Source: an uncultured Candidatus Saccharibacteria bacterium (GTDB taxonomy: Bacteria > Patescibacteriota > Minisyncoccia > Phycocordibacterales > JABMNX01). Taken from it: a stretch of DNA of 64,000 bases. This document shows, piece after piece, positions 8,626-49,225 of this stretch. The notes under the pieces were generated by a model. It was not told the DNA's origin, did not search any database, and saw only the letters and a program-made list of their open reading frames with translations. The position numbers and the translations under genes are program-made. The number at the start of each line of letters is the position of its first letter. Position 1 is the first letter of the stretch. Location of the stretch: the NCBI GenBank assembly GCA_964575755.1, contig CAZNRH010000001.1, forward strand, positions 115,347 through 179,346, given 5' to 3'.

Positions 8626-8658
8626 ACAACCCACATTTAAGTTTCAACTTATAAGAAA

Positions 8659-8694
8659 ACACCCCACACACACGTAGCGTGTGTGTGGGGTGTT
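8659..8694. terminator. bidirectional intrinsic terminator hairpin between rpoD and the GNAT gene
   Basis: Perfect inverted repeat caccccacacacacg-tagc-gtgtgtgtggggtg with A/T flanks. Confidence 0.7.
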
Positions 8695-10486: not shown

Positions 10487-10509
10487 AATTTGTAAACTAA
10501 CTTAAAATT

Positions 10510-10541
10510 AAATAGCCAGAGTGCTCTGGCTATTTAATTCA
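10510..10541 (-). terminator. intrinsic terminator of the dsbA-like gene
   Basis: aaatagccagag-tg-ctctggctattt perfect stem, then a T-run on the minus strand. Confidence 0.65.
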
Positions 10542-20469: not shown

Positions 20470-20602
20470 AAACATTAATTCGGCGACTGTGTCGCCGAAT
20501 TAATCAAAACAGTCAAAAACAGTGTTATACTTTTTATGGTCTTATATATCCTGTTACGCTCTAGGTTTTACTTAGGGCTTTAATTATTAATAAAAACTAG
20601 TT

Positions 20603-22958: not shown

Positions 22959-22987
22959 ATATGTGCGAAGCTTAGCTTCGCACATAT
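22959..22987 (+). terminator. perfect 13-bp-stem hairpin immediately after the helicase stop (atatgtgcgaagc-tta-gcttcgcacatat)
   Basis: Palindrome seen directly; a second, shorter copy lies at about 23222..23248. Confidence 0.55.
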
Positions 22988-23119: not shown

Positions 23120-23151
23120 AATCCGTCAACAGGTGCACCTGTTGACGGATT
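23120..23151 (-). terminator. perfect 32-nt palindrome (aatccgtcaacaggtgcacctgttgacggatt) with a T-run only on the minus strand
   Basis: 16+16 perfect inverted repeat centred on gtgcac; on the minus strand it is followed by ttatttttt. Confidence 0.5.
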
Positions 23152-23405
23152 ATGAGAATTGCTTAATGAACTATAGATCATTGTATGTAATATCACGTAC
23201 AATATATTTGTCAAATTTACTTACTATGTGCGAAGCTTAGCTTCGCACGCTTGCTTCAAGCAACGGCTAAAATACCTCTTCAAAAGACACAAAACTTACC
23301 CAAGTACAAATAAGATACTAATATCGATAAAAGTGATAGAATTACCATGGAAGCAGGGTATTTGGTAGACATATTGAATTAAATATAAAAAAAGATACTT
23401 ATTTT

Positions 23406-33836: not shown

Positions 33837-34408
33837 CACTTATCCTATTGTTTCCATTAGGGGTGGACTATATCATCATCCTTTTACACATGAAGTGTGA
33901 AGTGGGATGCAAGGCGCTTCGACCCTGTAAACTACAGGGGCTACTCCCGTAAGGGATAGTCTCTGAACCTTCAATGCACATAAGTGCAAAGCTTGGCTGC
34001 TGATTGCCCACAACATTACTTGCTAGGGTTTCCAGACAGTTCACCTTGTTTTCAATCCATGATTACTCATGAATGCTGCGTTTTCCGCCATGTACTTCTC
34101 TGTAACAATTTGCGCATAGGAGTATGCATCTATCTGCTTCAGCCTTTATTTTCTCCCAAGATCTGGTAAGTCCGCGGACAGACAGAATTCTTTTTGAGAT
34201 GGATCAAGGTGGTGCAAATCAAATGCTTCTGCATAACAACTATATCCACAAAGTTTACATTTACCGCCTTTATACTCAATGACCATTTGCTTCAACTTTC
34301 GTCGACGTTTTGCAACGGCTTTTATTAAGTACTCTCTGCGATCAGCGTACGTTCTTTTATCTGACATAGTATAAGTATACTATGTAAATTAGACGGGAAT
34401 TGTGTTCC
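33837..34408 (-). mobile_element. group I-like self-splicing intron carrying an HNH homing-endonuclease ORF
   Basis: 5' exon ends in U; the intron ends in G; candidate IGS GCAGC (complement of 34074..34078) pairs with exon end GCUGU including a U-G wobble; P2 hairpin CAUGA-GUAA-UCAUG; P7 strands GACUA...UAGUC; P9 hairpin CCUAAUGGAAACAAUAGG before omega-G. Confidence 0.65.
34146..34367 (-). CDS. HNH endonuclease (intron-encoded)
   Basis: 73 aa; CKLCGY ... FDLHHLDP (CxxC plus HH of the HNH motif); lies entirely inside the tRNA intervening sequence. Confidence 0.7.
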   Translation of the reverse strand: MSDKRTYADRREYLIKAVAKRRRKLKQMVIEYKGGKCKLCGYSCYAEAFDLHHLDPSQKEFCLSADLPDLGRK

Positions 34409-35555: not shown

Positions 35556-35939
35556 TTGGTGCATGGAAATCAGTCAAACCTTGGACGCGCAGTAGTGTGG
35601 CTTTTAAAAGAAGGAAGAATGCAACGTCTTTCGCATATATCTAGAGATGAGCGAGAGGAGTTATTTTCTGTGATAATGCCAGAGTACGAAAAAGCACTTG
35701 AAAGACTGTGGAAACCTGACTACATGAACTATTCTTGGCTCGGAAATAACTTTGGAAGTCACGAAGGACACGGACATATGCATCTTATTCCACGCTACGA
35801 ATCCTCACGAGGATTTGAAGATCATATATTCACTGATGAGCGATGGAGTAAAAACTATTCTCCCAGTCCACATAGCGATGCTTCAAAAGAAATTGTCCTC
35901 AATATAAAAAAAGCTATTCAGAACGAAATAAACAGCTGA
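35556..35939 (+). CDS. HIT-family hydrolase (start uncertain: TTG 35556, GTG 35559 or ATG 35616)
   Basis: Histidine triad HGHMHLIPR. Confidence 0.6.
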   Translation: MVHGNQSNLGRAVVWLLKEGRMQRLSHISRDEREELFSVIMPEYEKALERLWKPDYMNYSWLGNNFGSHEGHGHMHLIPRYESSRGFEDHIFTDERWSKNYSPSPHSDASKEIVLNIKKAIQNEINS

Positions 35940-35953
35940 GGTACCTCAGCTGT

Positions 35954-36808
35954 TTATTTTATAAAGTCAGAGTAGTTTATCTCGTTTTTACCCTCTGGTA
36001 TTATGCGGATTATTTTAAGTTTATTATTTTCTATTTCTGCATCAATAATTTTTATACGCTTCTCATCAACAAAAAAATATGTTCCAGGCCATCCTTCATA
36101 CGCTCGTATTTTAAGTAGGTTTTGATACGGGTCGTCATCTAGATTTATTAGCCCGTCTTTCTTTGTAATTTTTTTCGTTAAGGTTGCTTTGCTGTGATCT
36201 TGCTCTGTTGGTGTTATTTCTCCTTTAATCCACTTTGGGAGTAAACCTGCAAGCATCTTACCTCCGTGTCGAGCAAGTTTTTCTTCTAACTCGCTAGCAT
36301 GTGGAGGCCACTGTGATACTTCAATTTTATCTTGTGCAAGCATTGGTCCATGGTCCATCTCATTATCAACAAGCATTATTGTTACACCAATTTCTTTTTC
36401 ATCTGCTAAGATCGCTCCGCGGATTGGGTTTGCTCCACGTAGCTGTGGTAGTAGAGAAGGGTGTACATTAAGAACTTCATGCTTTGGTATCTTAAGTAGG
36501 CTCTTTGGTAAAAACTTTCCATATGCAGCCACAACAAATACATCCCATTCACCCTGTGGAGCTTTATCTTTAAGTTCTATCAAGAACTCGTCATCAATTT
36601 TATCTGGTTGTAGTACTGGAATACTATGCACTTGCGCCCATACTTTGGTTTCAGATGGTGTGATTACCATTTTTCTCCCTTGTGGCTTGTCTGGTGTTGT
36701 AACAACGAGTGATGGTACGATGCCTCCTTTTTCTAGTTCTTCAAGTACAAACACAGAAATCTGTGGAGTCCCAAAGAAAACTATTTTGTAATCATATTCA
36801 TTACTCAT
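35954..36808 (-). CDS. fmt: methionyl-tRNA formyltransferase
   Basis: 284 aa; KIVFFGTPQ N-terminus, NVHPSLLPQLRGANPI catalytic region; overlaps def (def-fmt operon). Confidence 0.93.
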   Translation of the reverse strand: MSNEYDYKIVFFGTPQISVFVLEELEKGGIVPSLVVTTPDKPQGRKMVITPSETKVWAQVHSIPVLQPDKIDDEFLIELKDKAPQGEWDVFVVAAYGKFLPKSLLKIPKHEVLNVHPSLLPQLRGANPIRGAILADEKEIGVTIMLVDNEMDHGPMLAQDKIEVSQWPPHASELEEKLARHGGKMLAGLLPKWIKGEITPTEQDHSKATLTKKITKKDGLINLDDDPYQNLLKIRAYEGWPGTYFFVDEKRIKIIDAEIENNKLKIIRIIPEGKNEINYSDFIK

Positions 36809-44644: not shown

Positions 44645-44695
44645 CAAAAGAATGCCCCAACCACTTGGGGCATTCTTTTTATGGCTTAAACAGAA
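44645..44695. terminator. strong bidirectional terminator (21-bp stem aagccacaaaagaatgcccca / tggggcattctttttatggctt)
   Basis: Seen directly. Confidence 0.7.
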
Positions 44696-47097: not shown

Positions 47098-47176
47098 GAT
47101 AGTTAAGCAAAGCAAATCACCACATCGCTTAGTTGTCCGACCATTAAGTGACGTTATTAGTGATATTATTAATGTA

Positions 47177-47848
47177 ATGAGAAAAACTCCTTTTATAACT
47201 GGTGAGTATTATCATATCTATAATCGCGGAGTAGAGAAAATAGATACATTCAAGGACTTACATGACGCTCAGCGTTTTTTGCAGAGCATGGAAGAGTTTA
47301 ATACTATTGAACCCATAGGAAGTATTTATGAAAATAATTTTCGTAAAAATAACCAACTTAGTGGTCGGACCACTAAGTCAGAAAGATTAGTGGAATTTTT
47401 GTGTTATTGCGTCAATCCTAATCATTATCATTTTGTATTATTACAGGTGGTTGATGGAGGTATAAGCGAATTCATTAGAAGGTTATCTGGTGGATATACA
47501 CGGTACTTTAATCACAGACATAAACGTTCTGGCGTGCTGTTTCAGGGGAAATTTAAATCTGTACACATAGATTCTAATGAATATTTATTACATTTAAGCG
47601 CATATGTAAATCTAAATAATAAAGTCCATAAACTTAGTGGTCCGACTGCTAAGTTAGTGAGATCAAGTTGGGATGAATATATCGATGGAAGTAGAAGAAA
47701 TAACAAAGAATGTTTTTGCAAGAAAGACATTATTTTAGGACAATTCAAAAACAAATCTGAATATAAAAAATATGCGGAATCTTCATTAAAAGACATGGTA
47801 AAAATAAAAGAAGTTACTAAAGGATTGGAAGATTTGCTATTAGAATAA
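47177..47848 (+). mobile_element. IS200/IS605-family Y1 (HUH) transposase, RAYT-like
   Basis: HUH motif NHYHFVL; C-terminal YTRYFNHRHKRSGVLFQGKFKS matches the RAYT/TnpA-IS200 consensus (RHGRSGHLWQGRFK) with the catalytic Tyr. Confidence 0.7.
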
Positions 47849-47859
47849 GTTACTCAGTT

Positions 47860-47894
47860 CTCTTCACTTAGTGGTCGGACCACTAAGTGAAGAG
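47860..47894. repeat. REP-like perfect palindrome downstream of the transposase (ctcttcacttagtggtc-cg-gaccactaagtgaagag); related copies at 47357..47377 (in-frame inside the gene), 47632..47656 (degenerate, inside the gene) and 47125..47152 (degenerate, upstream)
   Basis: The 22-nt core cttagtggtcggaccactaagt is identical between the internal and downstream copies. Confidence 0.7.
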
Positions 47895-47953
47895 AATGGT
47901 AAGAATGTATGCAAAAAACACTGTTTTGACCGTAGCGATTAGATACGATACTA

Positions 47954-49225
47954 TTGCTTGTAATGAGACAAAGTAAATTATTCACAAAAACCAGAAAAGA
48001 GGCTCCAAAAGATGAGGTGTCAAAAAACGCTCAGCTTTTAATCCGTGCAGGGTATATTCATAAAGAGATGGCAGGTGTGTATTCATTCCTACCTCTAGGT
48101 GTGCGAGTAATGGATAATATTAAAAATATTATTCGTGATGAGATGAATGTTATAGGAGGGCAGGAAGTATTTATGTCATCACTACAAGATCCTGAACTTT
48201 GGAAGAAGACAGACAGATGGAATGATGAAGTTGTTGATGTTTGGTTTAAATCTAAACTCAAAGCAGGTGGCGACATAGGTTTTGCGTGGACGCATGAGGA
48301 AATGATTACACGAATTATGTCAGAGTATATTCGTTCGTACAAAGACCTACCACTCTATACGTATCACATACAAAATAAATTTAGAAATGAAGTTCGTGCT
48401 AAAAGCGGTATTATGCGTACGAGAGAGTTCTTTATGAAGGACCTGTACTCTTTCTCTCGAACACAGGAGGAGCACGACAAGTTCTATGCTGAATCAGCAG
48501 AGACTTACATGCGTGTATTCAATAGGCTTGGTATAGGAGATAAAACATACAAGACATTTGCGTCAGGGGGCGCATTTACAAAGTTTAGCCACGAGTTTCA
48601 AACACTATCAGAAGCCGGTGAAGATATTATTTATATTAATGAAGAAAAGGGCATAGCAGTAAATGAGGAAGTTCTTGCTGACGCCGACTTATCTGAGCTT
48701 GGAGTAACCCGTGAAGAATTGGAAAAAAGAAAAAGTATCGAAGTTGGCAATATATTTTCTTTAGGTACTAAGTTCTCAGAAGCTTTGGGATTAAAGTATG
48801 TAGACGAAGCAGGGGAGGAGAAGCCAATTATTATGGGATCATATGGTATTGGGCCAGCTCGTGCAATGGGTACTGTCGTCGAGCTTCTTTCAGATGACAA
48901 AGGTATTGTGTGGCCAGAAGAAGTTGCACCATTTAAGATTCACCTTGTTGAAATTGGAGGAGGGGACGAGAAAGTGCAGGTATATGCTGATGAATTGTAT
49001 AAGAAATTTGCCGACACTGGTATAGACGTGTTGTATGACGACAGAGACGCTCGAGCAGGAGAGAAATTTGCCGACAGTGACTTACTGGGCATTCCTACTC
49101 GTGTCGTTATAAGTAAAAAGACACTTGAAGGTGGGGCTGATAATAATTCTGGTAACAATATAGAGCGTGTTGATAGAAAGACAGGAAAGGTCGAGATGGT
49201 TAGTGAGGCTGAACTTTTCTCTTAG
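47954..49225 (+). CDS. proS: proline--tRNA ligase (short form without INS editing domain)
   Basis: 423 aa; class II motifs; ProRS catalytic core and C-terminal anticodon-binding domain; too short to hold the bacterial INS domain. Confidence 0.85.
   Translation: MLVMRQSKLFTKTRKEAPKDEVSKNAQLLIRAGYIHKEMAGVYSFLPLGVRVMDNIKNIIRDEMNVIGGQEVFMSSLQDPELWKKTDRWNDEVVDVWFKSKLKAGGDIGFAWTHEEMITRIMSEYIRSYKDLPLYTYHIQNKFRNEVRAKSGIMRTREFFMKDLYSFSRTQEEHDKFYAESAETYMRVFNRLGIGDKTYKTFASGGAFTKFSHEFQTLSEAGEDIIYINEEKGIAVNEEVLADADLSELGVTREELEKRKSIEVGNIFSLGTKFSEALGLKYVDEAGEEKPIIMGSYGIGPARAMGTVVELLSDDKGIVWPEEVAPFKIHLVEIGGGDEKVQVYADELYKKFADTGIDVLYDDRDARAGEKFADSDLLGIPTRVVISKKTLEGGADNNSGNNIERVDRKTGKVEMVSEAELFS

Follow-up and report, generated by a model that had tools for sequence, protein, structure and literature searches.

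Repetitive extragenic palindromes (REPs) that lie in frame inside the genes of their own transposases are already known from the tnpA(REP) genes of subclass 2.4 (Quentin, Siguier, Chandler, Fichant 2018, PMC6006769), where, according to the consulted excerpts of that paper, the insertions generally fall between the motifs HuH and Y, in peripheral loops. The copying of REPs by REP-associated tyrosine transposases (RAYTs) is described, in the part of PMC8266576 consulted, as still poorly understood. Here we describe a 64,000-nucleotide stretch of an uncultured Candidatus Saccharibacteria bacterium (contig CAZNRH010000001.1, positions 115,347 to 179,346; hereafter the window, with positions counted from its first letter), in which a RAYT-like gene at 47177..47848 carries a 21-nt palindrome on both flanks and, twice more, within its own reading frame. 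Comparison with relatives shows that this embedding of cognate palindromes is old, family-wide, in frame and at fixed sites. Since REPs lying in frame within tnpA(REP) are documented for subclass 2.4, this type of feature is already known, and the original prediction for this locus, made from the letters of the window, went too far in presenting it as unusual.

Four copies of the palindrome CTTAGTGGTC[G/C]GACCACTAAG start at 47128, 47357, 47633 and 47867. A pattern search of the 64 kb for the 21-nt core at up to three mismatches, with the chance level taken from 100 shuffles, matched 47128-47148 (three mismatches, on the plus strand), 47357-47377 (none), 47633-47653 (three) and 47867-47887 (none). 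No fifth copy was found in the window at this threshold, where 0 were expected by chance. The same search identifies the internal and the flanking copies as one element, as had been proposed. As features, the four are given no strand. The upstream copy (47128..47148) is degenerate, again as predicted, with 8 of 10 stem pairs and a central C, and it ends 28 nt ahead of the ATG. Internal copy 1 (47357..47377, amino acids 61-67) is a perfect palindrome and an exact match to the core. It starts on a codon boundary, at offset 180 from the ATG at 47177, and its codons CTT AGT GGT CGG ACC ACT AAG encode LSGRTTK. Internal copy 2 (47633..47653, amino acids 153-159) is inverted relative to internal copy 1 and likewise starts on a codon boundary, at offset 456; its codons CTT AGT GGT CCG ACT GCT AAG encode LSGPTAK, and in its stem 8 of 10 pairs are Watson-Crick, the other two being G:T. 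Both in-frame copies, the exact and the degenerate one, had been noticed beforehand. The downstream copy had been announced as a perfect palindrome of 35 nt lying 12 nt after the stop; it is indeed perfect, but it measures 39 nt (47858..47896, core 47867-47887), with 19-bp arms around a central G, and begins 10 nt past the stop codon, which ends at 47848. The upstream and downstream copies are inverted with respect to each other (arms 47125-47151 and 47864-47890, 89% complementary), and such inverted cognate palindromes on both flanks bear out the REPtron-like layout that had been claimed. The two internal copies lie 276 nt (92 codons) apart and exactly bracket the catalytic core from HUH to Tyr. 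Folded as single-stranded DNA, the downstream copy reaches -18.8 kcal/mol (z -11.2), internal copy 1 -8.8 kcal/mol (z -6.2) and internal copy 2 -5.6 kcal/mol (z -2.6), while the upstream copy is decayed and its fold is not significant (-2.1 kcal/mol, z -0.4).

The region 47100-47900 carries a single gene (47177..47848, plus strand, stop codon included), whose product of 223 amino acids begins MRKTPF. Judging from its motifs and predicted fold, this gene encodes a RAYT/IS200-type Y1 HUH enzyme, in agreement with the original prediction. The HUH motif NHYH lies at 47420-47431, a catalytic-type tyrosine (Tyr143) at 47603-47605, and the C-terminal block RHKRSGVLFQGKFKS, also foreseen, is present. 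The Pfam family Y1_Tnp (PF01797) matches amino acids 65-145 with 29.4 bits against a cut-off of 23, thus passing the gathering threshold. More than 5400 homologues of about 220 amino acids were found, the top matches being about 60% identical, and those with a named host come mostly from Patescibacteria (candidate phyla radiation, CPR) lineages; H83 and H85 of the HUH motif and Y143 are invariant across 117 of them. An AlphaFold (AF2) model built from the alignment of these 117 homologues has a mean predicted local distance difference test (pLDDT) score of 80.5 and places Y143 within a helix (134-145). In a Foldseek search with the model, the best solved structure was 4ER8_A (E 8.7e-5, probability 1.0), the E. 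coli REP-associated tyrosine transposase with a REP hairpin, followed by the TnpA proteins of IS608 and ISDra2 (2A6O, 2VJV and 2XM3 among the matches). When the PDB was searched by sequence, using the family profile, chance hits were all that came up; the link to 4ER8 came from the fold search. The peptide of internal copy 1 (amino acids 60-67) is the sole internal stretch of the model with pLDDT below 50, a loop between helix 50-59 and strand 72-79, and that of internal copy 2 (153-159) comes directly after the Tyr143 helix. The window protein carries the motifs NHYH, FQ, YVNLNN and SSW. The Tyr motif of its clade is YVNLN[NDFY], in which Pro is not conserved, so that the class 2 motif Y---NP is not matched; distant paralogues on the same contigs carry YIHLNP.

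Both internal peptides turn out to be conserved alignment columns in most of the family, with the consensus sequences QLGGxTSK and LGGxTSKLV. For the comparison we took the best 80 of 587 confirmed relatives, which gave 79 loci in species-representative genomes, and counted a site when its stem had at least 9 of 10 pairs. The same four-site layout recurs in nearly all of them: about 40 nt before the ATG, near +175, near +450 and directly past the stop codon. By this count the upstream site is occupied in 67/77, internal copy 1 in 58/80, internal copy 2 in 46/80 and the downstream site in 67/79; most of the 79 loci have a palindrome on either flank, and the upstream copy stands some 36-50 nt before the ATG. 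The unit keeps a constant length of 21 nt (CTTRG-N4-N3-N4-CYAAG). Its foot, (C)ACTTRG...CYAAGT(G), is conserved, and the upper stem and loop vary between genomes. A protein set of 117 metagenome homologues was also used; of the 102 metagenome proteins covered by the comparison of both motifs, 75 have the two. The residues of the two peptides vary in a palindrome-paired fashion, T, S, P or A (NCC) standing opposite G (GGN), and T (ACT) opposite S (AGT). The palindrome of internal copy 2 is often longer, 31-39 nt, e.g., GCGCACCAACTTGG...CCAAGTTGGTGCGC, coding AHQLG..SKLVR, so that the LVK/R that follows it mirrors the xHQ that precedes it. Loop orientation differs between sites and between loci, and the orientation that would give TGA is avoided inside the gene: at two loci, L002 and L059, TGA loops are confined to the flanking copies. 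A clean presence or absence of seven-codon units was not seen at the internal sites, where linker lengths with and without a palindrome overlap, and several palindrome-less sites look like decayed copies (e.g., QIEGEVSKLVR and SLSGKVPKLIK).

The stems show strong compensatory covariation that preserves their pairing: positions 1-5 are conserved, and at positions 6-7 each of the four Watson-Crick pairs occurs and mispairs are few. Within a locus the copies have a common sequence; it differs from locus to locus and also between paralogues of the same genome. With sites picked by position only, the inner 13 nt have on average 1.38 differences within a locus versus 6.09 between loci, and pairs of palindromes with at most one mismatch make up 78% within loci versus 2.1% between them. 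In an independent set of proteins, the two peptides agree at all six non-central residues in 67%; across different proteins the figure is 5.5%. Same-genome paralogues are 48-75% identical, and every one of them carries a palindrome of its own. We also considered that enzyme specificity might be encoded by the inner stem and dropped this, as it is weakly supported by the relation of protein identity to hairpin distance (rho -0.24) and mosaic loci exist.

These mosaics are best seen against the genomic setting of the gene, which is present in a single copy in the window, between a gene for an M50 peptidase (RseP-like) on one side and one for a class II aminoacyl-tRNA synthetase (ProS-like) on the other. 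Neighbourhoods are mostly unrelated between loci, with 150 neighbouring genes falling into 123 clusters. The rseP-gene-proS order is nevertheless common to the window and locus L027, where RseP is 34% and ProS 49% identical and the RAYT-like protein 59%, and three further loci (L037, L046, L050) are likewise syntenic. The gene is thus conserved as much as, or more than, its housekeeping neighbours. L027 also has internal copy 1, but the palindromes of the two loci differ (CTTAGTGGTC... versus CTTGGACGTC...). In L050, the upstream copy is of the GGACAT type found in its syntenic relatives, and the two internal copies and the downstream one are of a GGAAGC type; this is a palindrome replacement caught midway, with the GGACAT type as the ancestral state. 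Further mosaics occur at L002, L008, L031, L054 and L068, which shows that sites can be replaced one by one. Taken together, synteny, conservation and mosaics point to a vertically inherited gene under purifying selection, the palindromes of which are swapped in place, and not to a hopping insertion sequence (IS).

A separate observation concerns a 14-nt direct repeat, TGTAATGAGAaAAA (TGTAATGAGA[A/C]AAA), at 47173-47186 and 47959-47972, which spans the start codons of the RAYT-like gene and of the proS-like gene downstream, a curious position. It was rejected as a target duplication, as by our estimate about one such repeat is expected by chance in 1.2 kb of AT-rich DNA.

Palindromes were acquired in frame more than once. 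Distant paralogues on the same contigs (29-48% identical) have unrelated palindromes at their flanks, and in four of them in frame too: near the position of internal copy 1 in L012 (+168, coding YVKHRVFDI), L034 (+170) and L077 (+182), and at another position, after the HuH strand, in L062 (+266). Since distant paralogues gained unrelated palindromes of their own, in-frame insertion, as the original prediction had it, is the likely origin of the internal copies; it would have been ancient and recurrent, and its products have since evolved in concert.

In 1.09 Mb of flanking sequence, 22 orphan copies of locus-specific palindromes were found, concentrated in a few genomes, mostly intergenic and of the form TTCACTTGG...CCAAGTGAA. 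Three palindromes of relatives lie in frame inside other genes: one codes for LGSSTPK within the adenylation domain of LigA, the NAD-dependent DNA ligase, another for LGGFTAK in a membrane protein of the sulfatase family, and the third, in another frame, for TWKLSFQV in MnmA; the ligA, sulfatase-family and mnmA copies are listed at L038 1598, L039 2055 and L077 19966. Palindromes inside housekeeping genes amount, in Patescibacteria, to behaviour like that of Rickettsia palindromic elements (RPEs). A marine-sediment assembly (ORDP01) contains L100, a RAYT-like gene the product of which shares 63% identity with that of the window, with the exact palindrome of the window at both internal sites and downstream, and seven other contigs of that assembly hold one palindrome copy each. 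The metagenome scan for the exact palindrome that returned this assembly did not have the window's own genome among its matches (no blastn match), and some matches, on G-rich Ga0314... contigs, have an unrelated context.

The upstream copy coincides with a promoter in many relatives. At 28 of 61 sites, its right arm runs directly into a hexamer that resembles a -10 in 5 or more of 6 positions, compared with 0-7 at the other site classes. In the modal layout, TTGGNN in the left arm of the palindrome is followed by 17 nt, TAnnnT, 6 nt and the start codon; the TTGGNN-17 nt-TAnnnT arrangement occurs in 21 relatives, and the -10 ends 6 nt before the start codon in 17. Given the hexamer, the 17-nt spacer and the 6-nt distance to the start, the upstream palindrome is within a probably leaderless promoter. 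Seen more broadly, the modal layout at the loci (L001-L079) implies leaderless mRNAs of this gene family in many Patescibacteria. In the window itself, a candidate extended -10, TGaTATTAT (47161..47169, plus strand), can be read 7 nt before the ATG, and we infer that, if functional, it would give a leaderless mRNA as well.

Structure at the RNA level was considered as another way to understand the hairpins and was rejected. Non-Watson-Crick stem pairs on the sense strand comprise 14 G:T versus 31 A:C, i.e., there is no wobble enrichment and an mRNA hairpin is not supported; the Rfam search yielded no family at the locus; and the upstream copy of relatives is located upstream of the -10. On the minus strand (47353-47381), TTATTTTTAC comes after the hairpin of internal copy 1, and by its score this site resembles an intrinsic terminator; codons rich in A stand ahead of internal copy 1 in many relatives as well.

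We propose, with a probability of roughly 60%, that the locus, which belongs to a Patescibacteria-wide clade of Y1 HUH enzymes of the RAYT type, forms a REPtron-like unit, vertically inherited and of low copy number, the hairpins of which are recopied into fixed sites. Among the traits of a REPtron, it has inverted cognate flanks, low copy number, divergent paralogues and vertical inheritance. The cognate element would be a hairpin-forming palindrome of 21 nt, conserved in its foot, (A)CTTRG...CYAAG(T), and variable in its upper stem and loop. Its four fixed sites would be one within the promoter or right before it, one in a disordered loop preceding the HUH strand, one in a loop past the helix of the catalytic Tyr and one just after the stop codon. 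By analogy with E. coli TnpA(REP) bound to its REP (4ER8), the enzyme probably acts on single-stranded DNA, where it would recognise the hairpin by its conserved foot. The current hairpin variant would then be recopied, again and again, into every site that bears a foot, either by enzyme-catalysed cutting and rejoining at the feet or by template switching between feet during replication; either route would explain the identity within loci, the mosaics and the chimeric arms. The intragenic sites could persist because the unit is exactly seven codons long, has no stop in the frame used and falls in flexible surface loops. These copies may be tolerated passengers, with the possible addition of some self-limitation that damps the activity of their own gene. 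In many relatives the upstream copy sits between the -35 and -10 of a leaderless promoter, where binding or extrusion of the hairpin probably represses the gene.

Several observations weigh against this proposal. Under a stricter criterion for related sites, 20-40% of loci are without one or both internal copies, which are hence dispensable. The NCBIfam RAYT equivalog (NF047646) scores the window protein at 27.7 bits and its cut-off of 80 is not reached. The canonical 5′ GT[AG]G guide is absent, GT[AG] being present only on the 3′ side, where it is paired within the stem. Self-correction of quasi-palindromes could preserve perfect stems in the absence of selection. Scanning the window with a simple two-hexamer sigma-70 model gave no promoter at the upstream copy and, as this copy is also decayed, the argument for autoregulation rests on the relatives. 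Lastly, mobilisation of REPs may be inactive in this genome, since the 64 kb hold no dispersed copy.

It is worth asking whether the internal copies simply result from a recent and private in-frame insertion of a dispersed REP- or RPE-like element into this one transposase gene, along the lines of the original prediction. The identity of internal and flanking copies, the in-frame entry of relatives' cognate palindromes into unrelated genes (ligA, mnmA, sulfatase-family) and the internal copies of distant paralogues, one of them at another position, would all suit such an event. The alignment check, however, showed both segments to be conserved columns across most of the 117 homologues and of the 79 loci, internal copy 1 is shared with the syntenic L027, the flanking housekeeping proteins of which are only 34-49% identical, and there are no donor copies elsewhere in the 64 kb. 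Conserved family positions, or a lack of further copies in the genome, were the outcomes that the prediction had itself named as contrary to it; with the first seen in the alignments and no further copy in the window, the reading of a recent, RPE-like insertion therefore fails, and we grant it very little probability. An ordinary, active IS200-type insertion sequence, with the subterminal hairpins as its ends and the internal copies as incidental, seems just as improbable to us. The Y1 HUH fold, the size of about 0.8 kb, the hairpin at either end and the different neighbours in most loci (150 neighbours, 123 clusters) are what one would look for in such an element, but it would have to be reconciled with one copy in 64 kb, with same-genome paralogues that are 48-75% identical and have different palindromes, with synteny across deep divergence of a gene conserved at least as much as its housekeeping neighbours, with the Tyr motif YVNLNN instead of the Y---Q of IS200, and with immediate neighbours that do not include tnpB but encode an M50 peptidase on one side and a class II aminoacyl-tRNA synthetase on the other.

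Function of the palindromes has to be weighed too. They might be unlinked to the HUH enzyme altogether and serve as double-stranded operators for a dimeric regulator, or as RNA hairpins that the host machinery makes for termination or stabilisation. The position of the downstream copy just past the stop, the mostly intergenic orphan copies and the terminator-like score of internal copy 1 with its T-run on the minus strand speak for this, yet we consider it hardly credible: each paralogue of the same genome has its own palindrome at all sites, which a generic host factor would not need; an upper stem with all four Watson-Crick pairs fits base pairing and not a fixed operator; the downstream copy has no T-run and the upstream copy of relatives is upstream of the -10; and G:U enrichment is missing, with nothing found by Rfam at the locus. 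A more serious competitor holds that the internal hairpins are selected cis-regulatory elements, at which the enzyme binds or cuts the single-stranded DNA (during replication) or the mRNA of its own gene and so limits its expression or activity; the internal copies would in that case have a function and not be passengers. Internal copies are common (58/80 and 46/80) and still perfect across very deep divergence, they were acquired independently in distant paralogues, they exactly bracket the core from HUH to Tyr, and the upstream copy overlaps the promoter. Many loci, on the other hand, lost one or both internal copies while HUH and Tyr remained intact, loop orientation is not fixed, the 14 G:T versus 31 A:C pairs give no sign of mRNA structure, and conversion alone can explain the persistence of the copies. 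We regard selected cis-regulation as possible, although doubtful.

We also entertain, as a long shot, that the internal copies are working recombination sites, at which the predicted RAYT cuts the feet and swaps or excises hairpin-bounded segments of its own gene; the 276-nt in-frame core from HUH to Tyr between the two internal copies could be one such segment. If that were true, this would be a self-editing and self-limiting HUH gene, and its fixed "landing pads" would be natural reporters of REP copying. The mosaic loci would likewise record enzyme-catalysed hairpin replacement, a long-sought step in REP dissemination. As one variant fills four alignable sites and there are thousands of replicates, replacements, chimeric arms and loop flips can be read from the sequence. 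Two of these four sites are under coding constraint, and there the symmetry of the DNA dictates the protein sequence, paired residues (G with T, S, P or A) following the palindrome. For the REPtron-like unit that we favour, the main value is that of a natural system for reading REP copying, and the locus would extend REP/RAYT biology, together with RPE-like in-frame insertion, to the reduced genomes of Patescibacteria.

The rest of the window holds some features of separate interest. A group I intron was identified at 33844-34117 on the minus strand (Rfam, 72.7 bits, E 1.6e-16). Directly 3′ of it, CACAGGTTCGAGTCCTGT...CGCCGGAGCC resembles the T-arm and acceptor end of a tRNA, and the intron may split a tRNA gene; Rfam matched no rRNA anywhere in the window. 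An open reading frame (ORF) of 73 amino acids with an HNH-like motif (34146-34367, minus strand) is just upstream of the intron. A second, unrelated perfect 21-nt palindrome, GTGCGAAGCTTAGCTTCGCAC, occurs at 22963-22983 and 23228-23248, 265 nt apart (chance expectation 0), in an intergenic gap of 448 nt with no ORF of at least 50 amino acids; a 32-nt palindrome (23120-23151) lies between its two copies. Its inner stem, GAAGCTTAGCTTC, is that of the RAYT palindromes of some relatives, and the two copies could be what is left of a lost RAYT unit, or else form a REPIN-like pair. Other long perfect palindromes with arms of 14-17 bp, each unique, are at 8658-8694, 10506-10539, 20474-20504, 35926-35959 and 44646-44679 and may be terminators.

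Among known systems, the E. coli REPtron with its TnpA(REP) (PDB 4ER8) is the best structural match, with HUH and Tyr in common, and resembles the locus in its inverted cognate flanking hairpins, its single vertically inherited gene and its combination of a conserved foot with a variable stem. Sequence identity to the E. coli protein is only 13%. Whereas the REPs of E. coli are imperfect, begin with 5′ GTAG and number in the hundreds, the palindromes here are near-perfect, have a CTTRG foot and occur in few or no copies outside the gene. RPEs are also short palindromic units, in frame in coding sequence and tolerated in loops. They are about 100-150 bp long and, to our knowledge, have no cognate enzyme; the present unit, in contrast, has 21 nt, goes with one particular HUH gene and stays identical across several sites. 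IS200/IS605 elements such as IS608 and ISDra2 share the Y1 HUH fold and the hairpins near the ends of the unit, but the present gene has no multiple identical copies, no tnpB and no Y---Q motif, and is syntenic across deep divergence. In the literature searched, no paper linking REPs or RAYTs with Patescibacteria was found.

The closest comparison is with the tnpA(REP) genes of PMC6006769, as far as its consulted excerpts go. Subclass 2.4 also has cognate palindromes that flank the gene and sit inside it with the frame intact, in peripheral loops, as well as low copy number and divergent paralogues. Compared by motif only, it has NH[IFV]H, WQ and YIxNNP where this clade has NHYH, FQ and YVNLNN, and its hosts are mainly Cyanobacteria and Bacteroidetes instead of Patescibacteria. 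The internal sites differ as well, being generally between HuH and Y in subclass 2.4, and here before the HUH strand and after the Tyr helix. The palindrome of the present clade is short (21 nt) and perfect and, unlike that of subclass 2.4, has no 5′ GT[AG]G foot; fixed sites throughout the clade and concerted evolution are features of it that the excerpts do not mention for subclass 2.4. TnpAY1 subclass 2.1 (Bertels group 1; "TIRYT") is similar in its NH[YF]H and FQ motifs, in the SS after the core and in its length of about 220-240 amino acids, and its Tyr motif, Y[IV]HLNP, is a partial match in a comparison that leaves the C-terminal domains aside. According to the same excerpts, subclass 2.1 has a C-terminal domain like a helix-turn-helix and no REP-like sequences nearby, unlike the present clade with its flanking and internal palindromes. 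On these sequence comparisons, the locus appears to be a variant of in-frame REP embedding in a different, Patescibacteria-wide clade, with motifs that resemble subclass 2.1.

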